Positions 13,535 through 61,900 are shown, counted from the stretch's first letter. The stretch: DNA of 64,000 nt from a bacterium (GCA_018646105.1 JABGVJ010000109.1:5123-69122); one strand, 5' to 3'. Numbers and translations: made by a program. The notes: generated from the sequence alone by a model not told the origin.

Positions 13535-14335
13535 TTGTGGCCCCATATTACTTCATATGAAACAATAGATCTATCGGGTCTCACTACTACTTATGACACG
13601 GAAACGCTAGAAAACATTATAGAACCTGCTACGCTTCTAGAAAAACTGGATTTGTCTGGCAATGAATTATCTCCCGAGGCCGTTGCTTATTTAGGCGAGG
13701 TAATTAATGATCCGGAGACAAGATTAATGCGTGTGATTTTGTCAGGAGAAATGTTACAAAATAGCTCAAAAATATCAAAGAAATATATCGAGGAAAAGCA
13801 GGGTACAAGTGTTTCTGAAGGGAACAGTGGGTACCATTTAGACCTTAGCTGCCTTGATAAGGAACTAAAATTTAAAATTTGGAATTTAAAAACTTGGAAT
13901 TCAAAAACCCGGGAATTAAGGAGCTCAATAAAAAATGCAACTGCGATAAATTTATCAGGTAGCTTGTTGGCAATACCATCCATTAAAATCATTGTCAAAA
14001 AGGGTAGGAATGTCGAAGAAATAAATTTGTCTAGAACCTTTATCACCAGCAATACGTTAAGACTATTAATCGATATGTTTAAAAATAAAGAACTCCGAAC
14101 CTTGAATTTATATAAGGATCAATGTCCTTCTTCAGATAAAGTGGCTTTTTCTCAAGGGTTAGCAGACATCTCCAATTTAAGACTACCTAAAAATCTAAAA
14201 ATAACTCTTCCATCTGGCAAAGTTTTAGACATCCCCCATTTACCCCCACTTAGCCCTAAAGTCACTTCTAAAAACCAAAAAAAAACATCTTTATCTTTTT
14301 TACCTTCAGTTGTTCACTCTGTTGGCGCCCGGTAA
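13535..14335 (+). CDS. Leucine-rich repeat (RNI-like) protein, eukaryotic-like (paralog-like of 11177 gene)
   Basis: IDLSGLTT..., LDLSGNELSPEAVAYLGEVI..., INLSGSLL..., INLSRTFITSNTLRLL repeats; TTG start. Confidence 0.55.
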   Translation: MWPHITSYETIDLSGLTTTYDTETLENIIEPATLLEKLDLSGNELSPEAVAYLGEVINDPETRLMRVILSGEMLQNSSKISKKYIEEKQGTSVSEGNSGYHLDLSCLDKELKFKIWNLKTWNSKTRELRSSIKNATAINLSGSLLAIPSIKIIVKKGRNVEEINLSRTFITSNTLRLLIDMFKNKELRTLNLYKDQCPSSDKVAFSQGLADISNLRLPKNLKITLPSGKVLDIPHLPPLSPKVTSKNQKKTSLSFLPSVVHSVGAR

Positions 14336-18334: not shown

Positions 18335-19453
18335 ATGTTTAAACAACTTTATTGGTTGATCTTATTAATATTGTTATTTAATACCAGTATGGCCAATGTA
18401 GAAATAGATTTTGCTAATACTCATATTACGTATTTAAAGAAAAACACCACGGATTTATATTATTATCTAGCTGATTACAATAAATTACGCACGAATGTAT
18501 TTCACACATGGGGCCCATTAAAAAACACCTTGATGGTTGACTGGGAAAATTTTATGGGTAAAGACTATCTGAATTCAGCTTCTTATACCGCTATTAAAAA
18601 CGCAACGTTTAACCTGCCTTTTACACCATACCGCTATCTTTATCAGTCAGATACTGTGGCGGGCAGAGTTTTTCTGCATCGAGCTTACACGGAAATCCAA
18701 AATCAAAACAATACCTTGGCTATAGGGCTACAAAGTATGCCCATGGGCGTTGGTCGTATATGGGCGCCTTTAGATGTATTTAATTTATTTTCCAGCTACC
18801 ATGAAATTGCTGGAGTTCTGGGTATTAAATATACGCATTACTTAAATGACCTTTCTTTTGTAAAATTGGTGACGAATTTCAAAGAGGAGTTTAAGGTAGA
18901 TAAATATGGAGGGTTATGTAAAACTCATGTTTGGGGTTCAGACATGGGCTTAACACTCTTAAATAGTGAAAACTTCATGATTATAGGCGGGGAAATAGAA
19001 GCAAATTTACTAGACACTGGCATAGAGGTACGAGCAGAAGGTGGACGCTTTGATGACAAGACTAGAGACAGTAAATATATCAAATATATTCTCGGTGCTG
19101 ATTATGCATTTCCAAACATGGTCACGCTAGCAATCGAATATTTTTTCAATGGTTTAGGCGGTGATAATTATCATGATTATGATACTAATCTTTGGAGTGA
19201 TGATAACGGATATCTTGCCAAGCATTATTTAGGGTCATCTTTAGGATACGTATATAATCCCTTAATCAATTTCTCAAATACTAATATGGTGAACCTAGTA
19301 GATGGCAGTGTTTACAGCGCCATATCCGCTGGATACAGTTTAAATGATAACGCGTCAGTGGATTTGACTGCGGTATTATTTTATGGGCAAGAAGGTAGTG
19401 AATTCAAGCTTTACAGCAATAGTTATTATCTGAGATGGTCTAATTATTTTTAA
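18335..19453 (+). CDS. Putative outer-membrane beta-barrel protein
   Basis: Signal peptide, alternating aromatic/hydrophilic pattern, C-terminal ...RWSNYF. Confidence 0.5.
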   Translation: MFKQLYWLILLILLFNTSMANVEIDFANTHITYLKKNTTDLYYYLADYNKLRTNVFHTWGPLKNTLMVDWENFMGKDYLNSASYTAIKNATFNLPFTPYRYLYQSDTVAGRVFLHRAYTEIQNQNNTLAIGLQSMPMGVGRIWAPLDVFNLFSSYHEIAGVLGIKYTHYLNDLSFVKLVTNFKEEFKVDKYGGLCKTHVWGSDMGLTLLNSENFMIIGGEIEANLLDTGIEVRAEGGRFDDKTRDSKYIKYILGADYAFPNMVTLAIEYFFNGLGGDNYHDYDTNLWSDDNGYLAKHYLGSSLGYVYNPLINFSNTNMVNLVDGSVYSAISAGYSLNDNASVDLTAVLFYGQEGSEFKLYSNSYYLRWSNYF

Positions 19454-44253: not shown

Positions 44254-45528
44254 TTGGCACGTGTACAACACGGAAAGATAACACATTATTCACAAGGTCA
44301 ACTAAGGCGGGCTCCTAGCCCCACTGATACAATAAGGACCAGAACTCTTACTACGGCAGTAGATGAACCGGAATTCCCGAAAACAAATGCATTAATCGAT
44401 CAACTAAAAGACGTAGGCAAAACCGCCCAAAAAGAATTTGAGACATTATTTAAAACATTAAAGGATTGCAAAATAGAAATTGGGTGGGTATTAAAAAATC
44501 CAGAAGAAGCCAAAAAACGCTGTTTACGCAAAAGAACCTCTTTTCAAGATCAACTCAACAGTATGAAGGGCCAAATTAAACATTTAGAGCTGAGCCTAGC
44601 CTCTGATCAACGTCTAAAAATTGAACGTGGTTTTTTTAATGCTCGTAATATAACTCTAGCGACAATAGATCTTGATTTAAAAGACTGGTATAACCAAGAA
44701 TATGAAAAATATGAAAAAGAATTTAAAGAGGCATCAAAAAATGTTAGAGCCTGCATTAAAGAGCTACAAAAAGACACCCTGAATCCCAAGAGAGATATGC
44801 TCCGCGCAACACTCAGGGTTAAATATAGTGGGCATTCGGGCAGGGCCCTATTTATAAAAGATCGACAAGATAAGGTAAAAAAAACTTTCGCGTATTGTCT
44901 AGAGCCGTATGACGAAAATATTGGAGTCTCCCTAAAAAGAGAAGCGGAAAAAATATTAACGGCAAGCTTACAAGAAAGAATAAAACTAAAAAAAAGACAA
45001 AAAAAAAGACAAAAATCACCCCCCAAAACGTTCCCTGGTTTAGACAGGGCCATAAGTAGCGCTATATGGCAACGAACTTCAGATCTAGCTTCAAAGTTTA
45101 TTGCTTCCCTAAACCCGTCATCACATCTGCGCCAATTCAGTTTAAATCGTACTCAACGAGACCAATTGACATTGTCCCATAAATCCCTTCAACTATCTGC
45201 TCTTTTAGGGGGTCTTAGGGAGGATCTGGACAAGGCCTTAGACAATGCCTTAGCAGAGTTATCCGCTCAACAAGATCTTTTTCATGGCCCAGGATTTAGA
45301 CAAAAACGAAAAGATTTTCCCAGATGGACTGACGAAGAATGGGCCGAGGTAAGAGCACGTAAAGAAGAACATGATAAAGCCCGTAAACAAAAATATGAGG
45401 CGGCACAAAGAGCTAGCCTTAAGATAGAAACTGTCGCAGCCACAAAACCCCCTGCGCCACAGGTTGGAAAGCCCACCGACGCGGTGTCGTTTAGACAGAT
45501 AGCGGTGATAGTGCCGTCCGGGGCATAA
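44254..45528 (+). CDS. K/R/E-rich coiled-coil hypothetical protein with NLS-like KKRQKKRQK stretch (effector candidate)
   Basis: TTG start with AGGGGTGGGG SD; ~40% GC; low complexity, no catalytic motif. Confidence 0.45.
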   Translation: MARVQHGKITHYSQGQLRRAPSPTDTIRTRTLTTAVDEPEFPKTNALIDQLKDVGKTAQKEFETLFKTLKDCKIEIGWVLKNPEEAKKRCLRKRTSFQDQLNSMKGQIKHLELSLASDQRLKIERGFFNARNITLATIDLDLKDWYNQEYEKYEKEFKEASKNVRACIKELQKDTLNPKRDMLRATLRVKYSGHSGRALFIKDRQDKVKKTFAYCLEPYDENIGVSLKREAEKILTASLQERIKLKKRQKKRQKSPPKTFPGLDRAISSAIWQRTSDLASKFIASLNPSSHLRQFSLNRTQRDQLTLSHKSLQLSALLGGLREDLDKALDNALAELSAQQDLFHGPGFRQKRKDFPRWTDEEWAEVRARKEEHDKARKQKYEAAQRASLKIETVAATKPPAPQVGKPTDAVSFRQIAVIVPSGA

Positions 45529-50221: not shown

Positions 50222-50918
50222 TCAAGCAGAGCCCGTAGCGGGCTTTCTTTTAGTAAGAAAACCCGTAGGCATAACTTCCTTTCAAATCGTCCGCAAATTA
50301 AGATATATTACTCAGGTAAAAAAAATCGGACACGCGGGCACTTTAGACCCCTTTGCTTCAGGTCTAGTTATACTGGCGATTGGCAAGCAATACACGCGCT
50401 TAATCACTAATTTTTTAAATGCTTCTAAAGAATATCGCGCCACCTTGGTTCTAGGGATTGAAACGGATAGCTATGATTGTGACGGTAAAAGCATACAAGC
50501 AGAAAAAAAGACTTGGGACATTTCTGAAATCGAACGAGCTGTACTCAGTTTTAAAGGAAACTATGCTCAAACACCTCCCGCTTTTTCCGCCAAAAAAATT
50601 AAGGGAAAAAAAGCTTATGAACTAGCCAGAAAAGGGGAACCCGTGAAATTAAAACCACAACTGGTAACTATTTTTGAAATAGAAATTAAAAGAATTAATA
50701 ATAATATTCCTTATCCTGTAGTAGAATTCATAGTGAAGTGTGCCAAAGGTACTTATATAAGATCCTTAGCCAGAGATATCGGCGTAAAACTAGGATCCGT
50801 AGCTTATCTAAAAGATTTATGCCGTACAAAAATAGCAGATCATGCTTTAAAAGATGCTTTAGATTATAAGGATTTAAATATAGAATCTATAAAGAAAAAA
50901 ATATGGAATATAAAATAA
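50202..50918 (+). CDS. truB: tRNA pseudouridine(55) synthase
   Basis: GHAGTLDPFASGLV catalytic Asp motif. Confidence 0.85.
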   Translation: MQSLQNNQAEPVAGFLLVRKPVGITSFQIVRKLRYITQVKKIGHAGTLDPFASGLVILAIGKQYTRLITNFLNASKEYRATLVLGIETDSYDCDGKSIQAEKKTWDISEIERAVLSFKGNYAQTPPAFSAKKIKGKKAYELARKGEPVKLKPQLVTIFEIEIKRINNNIPYPVVEFIVKCAKGTYIRSLARDIGVKLGSVAYLKDLCRTKIADHALKDALDYKDLNIESIKKKIWNIK

Positions 50919-51799
50919 CGGGGTTACAAAACATAAAAAAAATTCCTAGCCTAGGTATAGGGGTATTTGATGGGCTGCATATAGGTCATCAACAAATAGC
51001 TAAAAGATGTACGCATCTCCTTTCTTTTTATCCGCATCCGGATATAGTCTTAAGTAAAAATAAAAAGCTAAAAATGTTAACTACGTTAAGAGAACTCAGG
51101 TTTCATAAAAAAAATCTTTTAGTAGTACATTTCTCAAAAAAAATAGCTAAACTACCGGCTGATCTTTTTTTAGAAAAAATTATCGGCGCCCTAAAACCAC
51201 AAAAAATAGTAGTAGGATATGATTTCAAATTTGGATTTAAAAAAGAAGGTGATTTTGAAACTTTGCAAAAATGGGCCTTGAAAAATAAAATCCAAGTAAA
51301 AAAAATTGAGCCTATAAAAGCTGGCCCGGAAATTGTTAAAAGTTCTAAAATAAGAACTTTAATTGAACATGACAACCTAAATAAGGCGATCACGTATTTA
51401 GGGCATCCTTATCTTATAATTGGTACTGTTATAAAAGGAGACGGACGTGGAAGCTCTATAGGTTTCCCTACCGCCAACATTCTTGTCCCGCCAAAAAAAT
51501 TAGTGCCCGCGCATGGCGTGTACAAAGGAAAGATACTTTATGGTAATCAGTATTTAAAAGCCATGATCTATATAGGTAAAAGAAGTACTTTCAACAAAAA
51601 AGACTGGACTTTAGAGGTGCATATTTTAGATTATCAAAAAAATATTTATGGGAAACAACTGAAAATATTTGTGGAAAAAAAATTAAGGGATGACCGTAAA
51701 TTCAATAATGCTGACGAACTTATCCGACAAATCAAACAAGACATCCGAAATGCGAAGTTTTCTAAAAAAACTATTCCGCAGCTCCCTTATCTTCAATAA
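50903..51799 (+). CDS. ribF: Bifunctional riboflavin kinase / FMN adenylyltransferase
   Basis: GVFDGLHIGHQ FAD synthetase motif; C-terminal riboflavin kinase (GDGRGSSIGFPTAN). Confidence 0.85.
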   Translation: MEYKITGLQNIKKIPSLGIGVFDGLHIGHQQIAKRCTHLLSFYPHPDIVLSKNKKLKMLTTLRELRFHKKNLLVVHFSKKIAKLPADLFLEKIIGALKPQKIVVGYDFKFGFKKEGDFETLQKWALKNKIQVKKIEPIKAGPEIVKSSKIRTLIEHDNLNKAITYLGHPYLIIGTVIKGDGRGSSIGFPTANILVPPKKLVPAHGVYKGKILYGNQYLKAMIYIGKRSTFNKKDWTLEVHILDYQKNIYGKQLKIFVEKKLRDDRKFNNADELIRQIKQDIRNAKFSKKTIPQLPYLQ

Positions 51800-52277
51800 C
51801 TTCTCTTTTGCGACGAATATAGCCAATTGTAGCTATATCATCTAGAGATTTGGTTTGTTCTTTGGCTAAAACTTTTTTCCAGACTTCTTTTTTATTTTCT
51901 TTGTCTTTTTCAATTATTTTTTCATTCTTAACTGCTGCCACTAATTTTACTCTTTGGTCGTCACGTTTTTCTTCAGCTTCTTCTCGGATTTTTTCCTGCC
52001 CATCCACCTTTTCTTTTAATAATTCTAGATGTGATTTACGAAGTAAAACATGTTGAAAGTTTTCAATGGTAGATCCGGCTTCCATCATTTCACGTAACTC
52101 ATTGTATTTTTGTTTTTGGAAATCTTTTAGTTCTTCTTCTTTACGCTTTTCTTCTCTTAAACGGAGCTGTGCTTTATTAAACTGTTCCTCTTCTTGTTTT
52201 TTACGAATATTCCGCACTCTAAGTACGGAGTCCAAATTATACTCGAATTTTTTATTTTTGCGTTCTTGTTGCGACAT
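51771..52277 (-). CDS. fliJ: Flagellar/T3SS export chaperone-stalk protein FliJ (SctO-like)
   Basis: Coiled-coil 168 aa with FliJ N-terminal pattern (LDSVLRVRNIRKKQEEEQF...), directly downstream of fliI. Confidence 0.6.
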   Translation of the reverse strand: MSQQERKNKKFEYNLDSVLRVRNIRKKQEEEQFNKAQLRLREEKRKEEELKDFQKQKYNELREMMEAGSTIENFQHVLLRKSHLELLKEKVDGQEKIREEAEEKRDDQRVKLVAAVKNEKIIEKDKENKKEVWKKVLAKEQTKSLDDIATIGYIRRKREVIEDKGAAE

Positions 52278-52279
52278 AA

Positions 52280-53587
52280 TTAAGTTTCAAAAATATTAAT
52301 AAGTTCTTTAATAGTTTCGTCAAAAGGAACATTTTCATGGGTACCTTGAATCAAAAAAGTGTTGATGGCATCTATTTTTTCAATAGCATGATCTATTTTA
52401 GGGTTACTCCCTTGAACATACGCACCAATATTAATAAGATCTTCTGCTTCCCGATATTTAGCCAAAACCTCTCTTAATTTACCCGCTGCTTTTTTATGTT
52501 CATCAGAGCTTACGGACGGAAATAAACGACTTACACTATGGTTAATATCAATACAAGGATAATGATTTTTGGCTGCCAGATCGCGGCTTAAAACCATATG
52601 GCCGTCTAAAATACTTCTCGAAGTATCGGCAATAGGCTCGTCCATATCTCCACCTTCGACTAGTACAGTGTAAATAGCGGTAATAATGCCTTTTTCTGAG
52701 GTGCCCGCCCTTTCCATTAGACGAGGCAATAAAGCGAATACAGACGGGGTATAGCCCTTGGTGGTCGGCGGTTCTCCAGTAGCCAACCCTATTTCTCTTT
52801 GCGCCATAGCAAACCTGGTAACCGAATCCATCATAAACAAAACGTTTTTCCCTTGATCTCTAAAATATTCCGCTATGGCCGTACCAACTAAGGCGCCTTT
52901 CATTCTAATAAGCGGCGGCGTGTCTGAAGTAGCACATATCACAACGGATTTTTTCAAACCTTCTTCACCAAGTGATTCTTCAATAAAATCTTTAACTTCA
53001 CGACCTCTTTCCCCAATAAGACTAATAACATTAACATCTGCTTCACAGTTTCTGGCCAACATTCCCAAAAGAGTACTTTTACCAACGCCAGAACCGGCAA
53101 AAATACCTATTCTCTGCCCGCGTCCTAAAGTTAATAGCCCGTCAACAGCTTTTACGCCTGCCTTGAACACCTTGTTGATACGAGGCCGCATTACTGGATC
53201 TGGGGGTATTCTATCGACGCTATATTTTTCCTGATAAATAAGTTCGCCTTTTTGATCGATAGGCCGGCCAAGTCCGTCTAAAATCCTACCTAGCAAACCA
53301 TCTCCTACCTTCACCTGAATAGGATATCCTGTAGCTGATATTTTACTGCCTGGTTTAATGCCGCCTGTCGTACCTAAAGGCATCAACAATACTCGTCCTT
53401 CTTTAAAACCGACAACTTCTGCTTGAATATTATGCGTTTCGTCCAACTCTATATTACAAAGTTCGCCAACAGATACACCTTGAACCTGGGCCTCAACTAC
53501 CAGTCCCACTACTTTTACAACCTTACCAATAACTTGAACCAAATCAGCGTTGTCGATAGCGCGAAAATATCTATTGATATCGATCAT
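52280..53587 (-). CDS. fliI: Flagellum-/T3SS-specific export ATPase FliI (SctN family)
   Basis: Walker A GSGVGKSTLLG, Walker B, F1-ATPase beta-like fold. Confidence 0.85.
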   Translation of the reverse strand: MIDINRYFRAIDNADLVQVIGKVVKVVGLVVEAQVQGVSVGELCNIELDETHNIQAEVVGFKEGRVLLMPLGTTGGIKPGSKISATGYPIQVKVGDGLLGRILDGLGRPIDQKGELIYQEKYSVDRIPPDPVMRPRINKVFKAGVKAVDGLLTLGRGQRIGIFAGSGVGKSTLLGMLARNCEADVNVISLIGERGREVKDFIEESLGEEGLKKSVVICATSDTPPLIRMKGALVGTAIAEYFRDQGKNVLFMMDSVTRFAMAQREIGLATGEPPTTKGYTPSVFALLPRLMERAGTSEKGIITAIYTVLVEGGDMDEPIADTSRSILDGHMVLSRDLAAKNHYPCIDINHSVSRLFPSVSSDEHKKAAGKLREVLAKYREAEDLINIGAYVQGSNPKIDHAIEKIDAINTFLIQGTHENVPFDETIKELINIFET

Positions 53588-54447
53588 TGAGTAGTCTCGC
53601 TTTCGTGCTGCTCTTCTTCATATACTTGATAAATAGCTTTTTTAATACTATCTAGTTTAGCGGCAATGGTAGAATCTATATAACCTAAATTAGTTTCTAT
53701 AATACAACCACCTTGATCCACACGATAATCTTCTTGAATAATAAGATTTTTAATACCGCCCAGCTGTTTATCTATACGATCCCTATTAGCTTTTACAAAA
53801 TCCAAATCAGCTCTATTAACACGCACAATAACTCTGTCCTTATCCGTGATTTTACCTAAAGCTTCGGCTACGATATTAACGCAAACAGCCTGATTTAAGG
53901 AAATCTCACTTTTAATAATCTGTTCCGCAATTTTTAAAGATAAATTTAAAATTTCTCCTCTGGCCTTTTTTAAAATTTTATTTTTTTCAGAAACTGCTTC
54001 ACCAATGGTTTTTAGTAATTCCTGACTTTGAGAGGTATATTTTTCCGCGCCTTTTTTTTCAGCGGTCTGGGCTCCTTGCTGATAACCTTCTTGATACGCT
54101 TTATCTAAAATCTGTTTTTTTTCTATTTCTAGATCTTTAAGATATTGTTGTTTATAATCTTTTACTTCTTGTTCCATTTGCTTTTTGCTTGGAGCAGCGA
54201 CAACAGGCTCTGAAGCAGTAAAAATGGCAGAAGCGGGTTTTGAAGTTATTTTTGGCTGACGCTTGATTACTTTGGAATCTAGCTGGATTTTTTTCTTGAT
54301 ATTAGATATTCCTTTAATAACTGGTTTCGGGGCCTTTTTGTTTTCTTCTGTATCCTCCTCAAAAAAATAAGCCGTTGAACCCATAGTTTCTATGGCAGAC
54401 TGAGTCTTCGCTGGATGCTTTTTAATAATACCCATAATTTTCTCCAT
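53584..54447 (-). CDS. fliH: Export ATPase regulator FliH (SctL family)
   Basis: C-terminal GGCIIETNLGYIDSTI signature; overlaps fliI start by 4 nt. Confidence 0.65.
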   Translation of the reverse strand: MEKIMGIIKKHPAKTQSAIETMGSTAYFFEEDTEENKKAPKPVIKGISNIKKKIQLDSKVIKRQPKITSKPASAIFTASEPVVAAPSKKQMEQEVKDYKQQYLKDLEIEKKQILDKAYQEGYQQGAQTAEKKGAEKYTSQSQELLKTIGEAVSEKNKILKKARGEILNLSLKIAEQIIKSEISLNQAVCVNIVAEALGKITDKDRVIVRVNRADLDFVKANRDRIDKQLGGIKNLIIQEDYRVDQGGCIIETNLGYIDSTIAAKLDSIKKAIYQVYEEEQHESETTQ

Positions 54448-54523
54448 TGTTTGTTAAGTAATAATGGCTTTATAATAATATATTATAGGTTTTTTGTTAA
54501 CTAAGGAATAAAAATTAAAAACA

Positions 54524-55300
54524 ATGTTGCCATACCCAAATATTGATCCGGTATTTTTAAAAATAGGCCCTTTGGAATTTAGATGGTACGGCTTAATGTA
54601 TGTATTGGGCCTTACTCTCGGATTTTGGTATTTAAAAAATAAGTTAAAAACTTCTCTAAAATTAAACAATGACCTTATCTGGAATTTAATGTCTTATATC
54701 ACCATAGGCGTTATTCTCGGTGGGCGCCTGGGTTATGTTTTGTTTTACAACCTACCCTACTACTGGCAACATCCTTTAACTATCTTTGCGGTATGGGAAG
54801 GAGGGATGTCGTTTCACGGGGGCGGGTTGGGCTGTGTTTTGGCAATCCTTATTTTTAGTCTGGTTTATAAAACAAATTTTTATTTAGTCTTGGATTTTTT
54901 GGCACTAGGCTCAACTATAGGCATTGGACTGGGTCGTCTCGCAAATTTTATTAATGGGGAGCTCTATGGAAGAGTCACCAATTTACCTTGGGGCATGATA
55001 TTCCCTAATGGAGGGGAGCATATAAGACATCCATCCCAATTGTATGAAGCGTTTTTTGAAGGACTCGTTTTGTTTTTAATCCTAAATTTTCTTTTAAAAA
55101 AACAGATCTTAAAACCAGGTCAGCTTTTTGCCTGGTTTTTAATTAATTACGGAATTTTCCGCTTTTTCATTGAATTTCTAAGAGAGCCCGATTCTCAAAT
55201 AGGTTTGTTTTTTAATTTTCTGTCTATGGGACAACTATTGAGCGGTTTAATGATAGCCGGTGGTGGCCTGTTCTTTTTCTGGCGCAATAAAGGGCACTAA
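54524..55300 (+). CDS. lgt: Prolipoprotein diacylglyceryl transferase
   Basis: FRWYGLMYVLG, FHGGGLG signature. Confidence 0.85.
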   Translation: MLPYPNIDPVFLKIGPLEFRWYGLMYVLGLTLGFWYLKNKLKTSLKLNNDLIWNLMSYITIGVILGGRLGYVLFYNLPYYWQHPLTIFAVWEGGMSFHGGGLGCVLAILIFSLVYKTNFYLVLDFLALGSTIGIGLGRLANFINGELYGRVTNLPWGMIFPNGGEHIRHPSQLYEAFFEGLVLFLILNFLLKKQILKPGQLFAWFLINYGIFRFFIEFLREPDSQIGLFFNFLSMGQLLSGLMIAGGGLFFFWRNKGH

Positions 55301-55450: not shown

Positions 55451-56386
55451 TTGTGTTTGTGGGAATATAGATTAATAGAGGCAAAAAAAACGCTAGCTCT
55501 AAGGAGGAAATTAATTGTGGGAGGCTTACAAAGTTTAGGAAAAAAATTTATTTATAGTGCTAGAGACTTAGGACTTAATGTTGGACATGGACAAAGAGAT
55601 GCTGCACTAGACTCGGGGCTCAGCTGCTTAAGACAAATGGAAACAAGAGGCGATTCGCCTCCTTATGACACGCTCAGGGAGAGCATAGCTACCATTGGCA
55701 CTAATTATCTGGGTGATTCGCCACAAAAACAAGTAAAATTTGAGGCTTTTATGTCGGGACTACGCGCTACGAGAAGCACGTTTGATTTCCCATCTAGGGA
55801 TGCTATGTTAAATTTTTTGGATTGTGTAGAGTTACAAGTAGCTACAGATGCTAAATTAACTTTAAGCAAAAAGATGTCAACGGCCAGGAGAACCGTACGC
55901 AATGCAACATACACTGAAATTGAAGACGGGCAGTTTGATGACAGAGGAAATCTTGTAGCTGGCACTAGAACCTTTGACCCTCATGGTCCAGACGGGTTAA
56001 AAAAAGCAACCCTTACACAGACCGAGGATGGGCTGGGGGGTATGATACGCAATACGACAAGCGACTATACTGATCGCAGCGATGGGCTGGTTAGAAAAAA
56101 ATCGATTGATGCTGGATCATTTGTGATAGAACACTACGAAGGTCGTATCGACGGGCTATGTACGAAAGAGACAAACTCTGAAGAAGTAACAACCGAATAC
56201 TATGATGCGACGCGTCGGGAAGATGGGCTGCTCAACAAAAAATACCAAAGAGATAATCCCGAAATATATGAACTAAAATATATTGATGGAAGTATCGAAA
56301 AGGTTGGACATAGCCAGACTGGAGATATAGAGAATATAGTAGCTATTGTTAAAAAGCAAGCCGAAGGGCCGATTACGGCTGCTTAG
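55451..56386 (+). CDS. Hypothetical protein with degenerate YD/Rhs-like repeats; probable true start GTG 55517 (AAGGAGG SD)
   Basis: Repeated Y-x-D-x-x-DGL units (YTDRSDGLV, YEGRIDGLC, YYDATRREDGLL, KYIDGSIEKV); ~43% GC. Confidence 0.45.
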   Translation: MCLWEYRLIEAKKTLALRRKLIVGGLQSLGKKFIYSARDLGLNVGHGQRDAALDSGLSCLRQMETRGDSPPYDTLRESIATIGTNYLGDSPQKQVKFEAFMSGLRATRSTFDFPSRDAMLNFLDCVELQVATDAKLTLSKKMSTARRTVRNATYTEIEDGQFDDRGNLVAGTRTFDPHGPDGLKKATLTQTEDGLGGMIRNTTSDYTDRSDGLVRKKSIDAGSFVIEHYEGRIDGLCTKETNSEEVTTEYYDATRREDGLLNKKYQRDNPEIYELKYIDGSIEKVGHSQTGDIENIVAIVKKQAEGPITAA

Positions 56387-60973: not shown

Positions 60974-61900
60974 TTATTTATCAGAAATCTGATAAATAAT
61001 ATATTTAGGATATATATTGGTCTTTTTTGCTTTGATTCCCTTTAAAATAATTTCACTTTTGTATTTCGTAGCTGTGAGCATCAACTTTTCAAATGGCTCA
61101 TCATAAATAATTTTATTGGGGGCGCCAACATCTTGAGTGCCCCTCTCAAAATTAAGTATATATTTTTCTGATAAATAAACAGCATTTTCAGAATCTATTT
61201 CTTGCTTTGCAATTTTTATAAAAAGTTTTATTTTATACGCATCATTGCTTTTAATGAATAAATAGTTTGTGAGTTTATCATTCTCTTCTATCTTGCTCAT
61301 AGGGAGCAACAACTCATTGGTAGCAAACGTAGCACTACAAATACTATTTGTCTTAAAAGTAAATTTTACTTCGATGGCATTAAGAAACTGATAATTTGAA
61401 AGATCACCAGAGTACAATAATATATTCACAGTATCGGTATATTCCCCTGGCAAGACCATTTGGCCTGGCTTAATACCTAAATAATATTTCCCAAGGTATG
61501 TCGAAGTATCAGGGTCTGGTGATTGCGTCAAAATAATTACATTTTCACTAATGGCAGAATCCGCCAACTCTTTTAAACCATCTGGGGAAAACTGGCTGTT
61601 ATACAAATTATATTCTAATAATTGGCTATTCTGTTCTGCTTTTCTGGGGTACGAATTTGAGTGTCCTTTGGAGATGGTGAAAAAAAAATCACTACCAGCT
61701 AAACTATCTGGTTCAATGCTAAATTCTATCTCTGCAATTTTTTCTTCTTCTAAAAAGGGATTGTAAATAAGTTCCTGATAATTTGACCAATGAACATCTC
61801 TGATAAGTATATTTGACACCATTTGTGCAGTGAGCATAACAGATAAATATACCAATAGAATACTTGTTAAAAAAAATACTTTTAGCCAGTTAGTTTTCAT
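60974..61900 (-). CDS. Hypothetical exported protein (signal peptide), co-transcribed with upstream 701-aa gene
   Basis: N-terminal hydrophobic signal; no recognisable catalytic motif. Confidence 0.4.
   Translation of the reverse strand: MKTNWLKVFFLTSILLVYLSVMLTAQMVSNILIRDVHWSNYQELIYNPFLEEEKIAEIEFSIEPDSLAGSDFFFTISKGHSNSYPRKAEQNSQLLEYNLYNSQFSPDGLKELADSAISENVIILTQSPDPDTSTYLGKYYLGIKPGQMVLPGEYTDTVNILLYSGDLSNYQFLNAIEVKFTFKTNSICSATFATNELLLPMSKIEENDKLTNYLFIKSNDAYKIKLFIKIAKQEIDSENAVYLSEKYILNFERGTQDVGAPNKIIYDEPFEKLMLTATKYKSEIILKGIKAKKTNIYPKYIIYQISDK

Follow-up and report, generated by a model that had tools for sequence, protein, structure and literature searches.

Why would a bacterium carry the genes of a flagellar export ATPase complex apart from any other flagellar gene? 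The question is raised by a stretch of 64,000 nucleotides of bacterial DNA (GCA_018646105.1, JABGVJ010000109.1:5123-69122; hereafter the window), in which an earlier note, made from the sequence alone, had pointed out an orphan fliH-fliI-fliJ module between ribF and lgt. It had proposed either a dispersed flagellar or type III secretion export apparatus or a repurposed ATPase, with a parallel in Chlamydiae and a hint of a secretion-effector system. Our analysis indicates that the three genes are those for FliH, FliI and FliJ of a flagellar type III export apparatus, and that they probably form an ordinary flagellar export ATPase unit that has moved away from the other flagellar loci, as one part of a dispersed gene set.

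The module encodes FliH, FliI and FliJ

Three minus-strand open reading frames (ORFs) occupy positions 51771-54447, exactly where the earlier note had drawn them. fliH (53584..54447) encodes a protein of 287 amino acids (aa), the stator/regulator subunit of the flagellar export ATPase complex; fliI (52280..53587) encodes the flagellar type III export ATPase of 435 aa; and fliJ (51771..52277) encodes a highly charged 168-aa protein with a predicted coiled coil, the central-stalk/chaperone-escort subunit. The operon had been described as tight, with 4-nt overlaps. This holds for fliH and fliI, whose stop and start codons overlap in ATGA, while fliI and fliJ are separated by a 2-nt gap (TAAttATG). 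Both flanks are as described before: ribF (50903-51799, plus strand) is convergent with fliJ, the 3' ends overlapping by 29 nt, and lgt (54524-55300, plus strand) and fliH diverge from a spacer of 76 bp.

FliI contains the Pfam domains PF02874 (ATP-synt_ab_N), PF00006 (ATP-synt_ab, E = 2.3e-88) and PF18269 (T3SS_ATPase_C), and its top curated model is FliI_clade2 of NCBIfam (TIGR03497, 652.2 bits with a cut-off of 629.8). A PDB search matched it to Salmonella FliI over residues 16-434 (E = 1.8e-118), and the motifs read from its sequence are intact, with Walker A (GSGVGKS) at 165-171, GERGRE at 192-197 and Walker B (LFMMDS) at 250-255. Four NCBI metagenome-assembled genomes (MAGs) contain the exact protein, with the public annotation 'flagellar protein export ATPase FliI'. 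FliH matches Pfam PF02108 over residues 141-267 (E = 3.9e-20, 72.5 bits with a cut-off of 24.1), and its best NCBIfam match is the FliH equivalog at 136.6 bits, under the cut-off of 200; the N-terminal region of about 90 aa is poorly conserved. In all Margulisbacteria loci examined, fliH orthologues occupy the same position upstream of fliI.

FliJ stays below every curated threshold and scores 24.4 bits with Pfam PF02050 (E = 3.7e-5, gathering score 28.4), 22.5 bits with the YscO-like PF16789 (E = 1.3e-4, threshold 27) and 30.5 bits with TIGR02473 (E = 4e-7, cut-off 50.45). We therefore assigned it by its size, charge and coiled-coil character together with its place directly after fliI, which is kept in relatives; the JGI annotation is also FliJ.

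Flagellar FliI or injectisome SctN

One alternative is that the three proteins are SctL, SctN and SctO of a non-flagellar injectisome whose other parts are dispersed, as in Chlamydiae, and several observations weigh for it and against a flagellar assignment. FliI also passes the SctN equivalog TIGR02546, marginally (606.9 bits with a cut-off of 604.75, a lower score than with FliI_clade2), its best PDB matches include 'Type 3 secretion system ATPase' chains, and YscN is closer to it (54-57% identical) than E. coli FliI (about 48%). A profile built from 13 Margulisbacteria orthologues of FliJ had as its sole PDB match the chlamydial SctO protein CdsO (6wa9, E = 0.009). A neighbour-joining tree was made with five SctN, the FliI of E. 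coli and Azospirillum, 20 FliI from flagellar loci of other phyla and 15 Margulisbacteria FliI, using AtpD as outgroup and 200 bootstraps, the references coming partly from plasmids and E. coli. The deep split between FliI and SctN of the Ysc/Hrc/Rhc type was unstable in this tree, and in 58 of the 200 bootstraps fewer than five FliI references separated the window protein from an SctN.

Because the tree leaves this deep relation unstable, we relied on gene context. FliI and Ysc-type SctN are not cleanly separable by sequence alone, and the flagellar gene context of the orthologues is decisive: in relatives they are embedded beside fliF/fliG and the flagellar rod, L-ring and P-ring genes. The window FliI falls inside the Margulisbacteria FliI clade in 176 of 200 bootstraps (88%), nested among FliI from flagellar loci. 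The best curated model of FliI and the best matches of FliH are flagellar, and the host is not a chlamydia. Pfam revealed no secretin, sctV, sctJ, needle, gatekeeper, translocon, effector or effector-chaperone family in the window, and no sct-specific family was present in about 30 related Margulisbacteria loci examined. We consider it highly improbable that the module belongs to an injectisome.

The host is a marine Marinamargulisbacteria species

The host of the window is a marine member of Candidatus Marinamargulisbacteria, a group that is abundant in the ocean, has not been cultured and is the sister of the Cyanobacteria lineage. The exact FliI protein was found on at least 22 contigs from NCBI MAGs (GCA_018644845.1 and GCA_018657345.1 among them) and from ENA, JGI and Logan marine assemblies, some of them from Saanich Inlet. 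When one genome was taken per species, the closest FliI (68-76% identical) were those of Marinamargulisbacteria MAGs and single-cell genomes and of Candidatus Termititenax, followed by FliI of flagellated phyla (53-61%). A protein search retrieved more than 100 Marinamargulisbacteria FliI clusters that are 74-80% identical to the window protein, the FliI of Termititenax and other Margulisbacteria being 68-73% identical. The Marinamargulisbacteria MAGs NZFK01 (locus L011), PBBE01 (loci L015 and L194) and JBHPEX01 (loci L199 and L200) are deposited under wrong names, namely Rickettsiales bacterium, Actinomycetota/Actinobacteria bacterium and Thermoproteota archaeon.

Relocation of fliHIJ from the flagellar cluster

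The flagellar genes of Margulisbacteria were found in two arrangements. The clustered one is present in Termititenax persephonae, Termititenax aidoneus and a sulfidic-cave Termititenax sp., in L016 and in three MAGs that bear the name Marinamargulisbacteria, the loci having been identified by Pfam and phmmer (Termititenax L017, L032 and L020; also L016 and L018-L021). Its order is flgG-flgA-(panD)-flgH-flgI-x-fliA-flgB-flgC-fliE-fliF-X, with fliH-fliI following directly; X, at the position of fliG, is the short fliG described below. The panD gene stands between flgA and flgH in L020.

In the relocated arrangement, which characterizes the marine clade, fliH-fliI-fliJ lie divergent beside lgt, as they do in the window. 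We found it in at least 12 species-level relatives (L007-L009, L011-L015, L103, L200), and in L008 and L014 the ribF-truB-nrnA-rbfA-infB-nusA side is also common to the window. The flagellar cluster of this clade runs fliK-like, FlhB-C-like, flgF, flgG, flgA, flgH, flgI, x, fliA, flgB, flgC, fliE, fliF and short fliG; it stops there, and the next genes are wza/wzz, lnt or trxB-like (L089, L090, L091, L105, L194, L199). The cluster is broken exactly between the short fliG and fliH, at the former site of fliHIJ. The ancestral order would have been ...flgB-flgC-fliE-fliF-(short fliG)-fliH-fliI-fliJ, and after a break between the short fliG and fliH the last three genes would have come to lie divergent beside lgt, leaving the other flagellar loci elsewhere on the chromosome. 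The earlier note had named, as the outcome that would speak against its own interpretation, a FliI within the clade of flagellated relatives and genes split by rearrangement. This is essentially what we observed, as the Margulisbacteria FliI clade (88% bootstrap) has members inside canonical flagellar clusters.

Two further features of these loci were recorded. In the sublineage of L018-L021, the C-terminus of FliI is prolonged by an acidic stretch of about 45 aa (…DDDLLGGDLDFDDIDFDDF; for example L020:9980-11425), and no fliJ follows fliI; the next gene encodes a GNAT acetyltransferase on the other strand, and then comes one for a MinD/FlhG-like ATPase. In seven Marinamargulisbacteria species, a protein of about 400 aa that belongs to no Pfam family is encoded directly after fliJ (phmmer E = 1e-73 to 1e-86; L200:4245-5444, L013:11791-13041, L007:13701-14885, L015:9623-10819, L009:11696-12973, L022:2966-4147 and L024:1667-2902). 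This protein may be an undescribed flagellar component; the window lacks its gene and has ribF directly next to fliJ.

Other flagellar loci in relatives and in this species

Three relatives with fliHIJ beside lgt carry other flagellar loci elsewhere in the same assembly, which agrees with the dispersed export apparatus that had been proposed as one of the two possibilities. In GCA_050250935.1, FliI (P0182, 78% identical to that of the window) and FlgI (P0317) share a longest contig of 576,121 bp from NCBI; the flg cluster is located at 309-330 kb of JBFWNS010000001.1, and the tetranucleotide distance between the FliI and flg loci is 7.8, a within-genome level (15-50 between species). The Logan twin of the P0182 locus has fliHIJ beside lgt and no further flagellar gene within 10 kb. 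In GCA_002716485.1, contig PBBE01000045 (L015) holds lgt and fliHIJ, and PBBE01000005 (L194) holds the genes from fliK to fliF and the short fliG. In GCA_042576685.1, contig JBHPEX010000101 (L200) has, next to lgt, fliH-fliI-fliJ followed by a 399-aa gene, a TPR gene, the gene of a FliG_M/C protein, motA and motB, while JBHPEX010000003 (L199) carries flgA-flgH-flgI...fliF-short fliG. Across the relatives with this arrangement, we found fliK, flhB-C-like, flgF/G/A/H/I, fliA, flgB/C, fliE, fliF, the short fliG, FliG_M/C and motAB.

For the exact species of the window, other flagellar genes were not found, and this counts against our interpretation. In two FlgI searches, the best 120 of thousands of matches were compared with the accession blocks of the window FliH/I/J, lgt and ribF, and among these 120 none had an NCBI accession near those of the five MAGs that carry the window locus. 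In a scan of JGI metagenomes with a FlgI alignment, most of the matches listed came from other phyla, and none of the listed contigs could be assigned to this species. The cluster with P0067 (L091) was considered as belonging to this species (same BioProject, JGI metagenome 3300072015, ENA studies) and was rejected as that of another species, with a GC content of 41% as compared with 36.5% for the window and a tetranucleotide distance of 26-34 to it as compared with about 10 within a genome.

These results are what would be expected of a true orphan, that is, of a species that lost its other flagellar genes and kept FliHIJ in a repurposed or decaying state, and the lack of flagellar genes within 64 kb and the absence of the approximately 400-aa gene that follows fliJ in seven relatives fit the same explanation. 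Yet the three ORFs are intact, retain their catalytic motifs and are identical across many samples: the DNA of fliH and fliI is 100% identical across 10 independent assemblies and that of fliJ has only 1-5 differences, so that population dN/dS is uninformative. Moreover, the same arrangement coexists with full basal-body loci in three relatives, and since the FlgI searches covered the best 120 of thousands of matches, the failure to see FlgI is weak evidence. We also know of no FliI-family ATPase that functions without an export gate. A true orphan is thus quite improbable, and the suggestion of a repurposed ATPase found no support; 'orphan' is a property of the 64-kb window and is not shown for the genome. 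From the three relatives, together with the intactness and conservation of the genes, we infer that this species also has other flagellar loci.

A FliG in two pieces and the published gene tables

In all Margulisbacteria examined, the gene at the fliG position encodes a protein of 160-225 aa, comprising FliG_N and the first half of FliG_M and lacking the torque-generating C-terminal domain (L020:8472-8996, L017:8443-8949, L089:15293-15817, L105:15354-16001, L194:13714-14391, L199:6711-7376). A profile of ten orthologues matched residues 10-180 of Aquifex FliG (3hjl, E = 1.2e-8), hhalign covered residues 4-157 of E. coli FliG, and Pfam detected FliG_N and FliG_M in two members. In L200, a 481-aa protein (L200:6742-9662, JBHPEX010000101.1) is encoded about 3 kb downstream of fliJ and is followed by motA and motB. 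It contains FliG_M and FliG_C (PF01706, E = 1.7e-17; Thermotoga FliG 3ajc, E = 5e-17) and is membrane-anchored, with N-terminal transmembrane segments and a weak FliF-C-like stretch. FliG thus seems to be split into a short piece adjacent to FliF and a membrane-anchored protein with the M and C domains encoded beside the stator genes. To our knowledge, no precedent has been described for a split FliG with a membrane-anchored piece.

The truncated fliG beside fliF would also suit an apparatus reduced to the basal body, in which FliHIJ powers a flagellum-derived secretion device or persists as a structural relic, with no motile filament. A basal-body secretion device or relic of this kind has been proposed for Buchnera. 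The published gene inventory bears on this explanation. For the Marinamargulisbacteria single-cell genome AA1A (GC 35.9%, 82% complete), FlhA, FlhB, FliO/P/Q/R, FliN, FliF and FlgC/F/H/I/A/E are given as present and FliG is flagged 'check_length' (Matheus Carnevali et al., PMC6349859, Supplementary Data 2). The KEGG table of that study scores FliM, FlgK/L, FliD, FlgM/N, FlhF/G and che as absent from three Marinamargulisbacteria single-cell genomes, FliS likewise, and FliL as absent from AA1A (PMC6349859). The scored absence of these junction, cap, switch and chemotaxis genes is in line with a filament-less apparatus and speaks against a complete machine, since by this table the clade cannot be credited with a full motile flagellum. 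The same table, however, scores FliH, FliI (K02412), FliJ, FliE and FlgB as absent in Marinamargulisbacteria and FliC as absent in every genome (PMC6349859). Its absences are unreliable because FliI is scored as missing though present in more than 100 Marinamargulisbacteria clusters, and because FliC is missing everywhere. Furthermore, the FliG_M/C protein with motA and motB near fliJ in GCA_042576685.1 argues for a torque-generating motor, and FliK-like and FlgE genes are present. We therefore regard a filament-less apparatus as unlikely.

In the loci that we fetched, no flagellin, FlgK/L, FliD or FliM was seen, no search having been aimed at them. Flagellins from 'Candidatus Margulisbacteria' have been listed (PMC7018530), and FlgV homologues, which are co-conserved with flagellar genes, have been reported in Margulisbacteria (PMC11607428). 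In our literature search, flagella of Marinamargulisbacteria appeared in no paper's main text and were treated only in the supplement of PMC6349859.

Upstream region of fliH and other contents of the window

A candidate sigma-70-type promoter for fliHIJ lies in the lgt-fliH spacer (54472..54500, minus strand; TTAACA-17-TATTAT, 10 of 12 consensus matches). It is a weak candidate based on the consensus match only, as promoter-like sites in its region are no commoner than in shuffled sequence. A sigma-28 site in front of fliH would have linked the module with the FliA regulon; no sigma-28-like motif was found there in the window or in nine relatives, and a loose sigma-28 pattern was not enriched in flagellar clusters either. 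A sigma-54-type site was likewise not seen upstream of fliH, no scan having been aimed at it.

The window holds no other flagellar or injectisome genes, including fliE/F/G, flhA/B, fliPQR and sct, as had been stated before. This was evaluated by Pfam, scanned or precomputed, for essentially all ORFs of at least 120 aa, and by two phmmer searches of all six frames, one with FlgG/A/H/I/B/C, FliA/E/F and an FlhG-like protein of Margulisbacteria and the other with E. coli FliE through FliQ, each of which matched only FliH and FliI in the window. The neighbours of the module are housekeeping genes or belong to no family (among them nusA-infB-rbfA-DHH-truB-ribF, lgt, UPF0182, folC, addAB and an ABC/MacB transporter). 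The link that the earlier note had drawn to an effector-like regulon and a secretion-effector system was not borne out, as the window has no gene for an effector, a chaperone, a secretin or an Sct protein and the neighbours are housekeeping genes.

An ORF of 311 aa beside lgt (55451-56386, plus strand; its called length, 289 or 311 aa, depends on the assembly) belongs to no Pfam family and shows a recurring ...DGL... motif (EDGLGG, SDGLVRKK, IDGLCTKE, EDGLLNKK); it could be the item that had been called effector-like, though nothing ties it to secretion. Two adjacent ORFs at 60974-63995 (minus strand), of 308 aa and at least 701 aa (800-851 aa in full contigs), gave only faint matches (SCPU, E = 0.002; CarboxypepD_reg, E = 1.6e-5) and possibly encode surface or fibre proteins. 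At 39352-40525, the gene of a 283-aa protein with a Bro-N domain adjoins tRNA-Ser(GGA) at 40436-40525. The Bro-N family is typical of phages and mobile elements, and the region may be the remnant of an integrated element. Further plus-strand ORFs without a Pfam family are located at 592-2439 (615 aa), 13535-14335 (266 aa), 18335-19453 (372 aa), 30664-31482 (272 aa) and 44254-45528 (424 aa). The last of these lies directly upstream of nusA and is kept in all assemblies of this species; it was considered as a homologue of the gene of about 400 aa that follows fliJ in relatives and was rejected, as no homology was detected.

Comparison with known systems

The fliFGHIJK operon of Salmonella and E. 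coli (structures 2dpy and 5b0o) contains the same three genes in the same order, and the three-domain architecture and Walker motifs of FliI are kept in the window, as is the FliH domain. Unlike in that operon, the window genes are detached from fliF and fliG and stand beside lgt, FliH has an additional N-terminal region of about 90 aa that is poorly conserved, FliJ scores below curated thresholds and FliI is only about 48% identical to that of E. coli. By analogy with Salmonella, FliI would function as a hexameric ATPase, FliH dimers would anchor it to FlhA of the export gate and to FliN of the C-ring, and FliJ, as the central stalk, would couple it to FlhA. FliHIJ would in this way load substrates of the rod, hook and filament type and activate the gate, which is driven by protons.

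Termititenax and the related MAGs belong to the same phylum, and their FliH and FliJ are orthologous to those of the window; there fliHI(J) follow flgBC-fliE-fliF-short fliG, whereas here they have been relocated. Helicobacter and Campylobacter have their flagellar genes dispersed in small groups, with housekeeping genes in between. The window resembles them in having fliH, fliI and fliJ away from the export-gate genes and differs in that it comes from another phylum and that the breakpoints of its lineage are lineage-specific. Chlamydiae possess orphan FliI, FlhA and FliF beside an injectisome and have no rods, rings or motor. The likeness to these orphan homologues consists in a FliI-family ATPase gene without neighbouring basal-body genes. 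The analogy goes no further, as the host is a Marinamargulisbacteria species, its relatives carry rods, L/P rings, the MS ring, fliA, the FliG-C protein and motAB, and no injectisome genes were seen.

Public records already annotate the genes correctly as those of the flagellar export ATPase, and a scattered arrangement of flagellar genes is common. The useful result is negative: we obtained no evidence that the ATPase is an orphan or that an effector system or a hidden injectisome exists here. The remaining novelty lies outside the window, in the apparently split FliG and the possibly reduced flagellar gene list of the clade. The flagellar genes of Marinamargulisbacteria are barely described, and these features may interest specialists of the flagellar motor. 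It is improbable that marine Marinamargulisbacteria, this species included, keep a reduced, re-engineered flagellar machine with the gate, FliHIJ, MS ring, rods, L/P rings, a short FliG beside FliF and a separate membrane-anchored FliG-M/C protein beside MotAB, and without FliM, hook-filament junction, cap and chemotaxis proteins; if this were true, FliHIJ would not power a canonical swimming flagellum, and its role would lie in secretion or in a motor whose rotor is built in a novel way.

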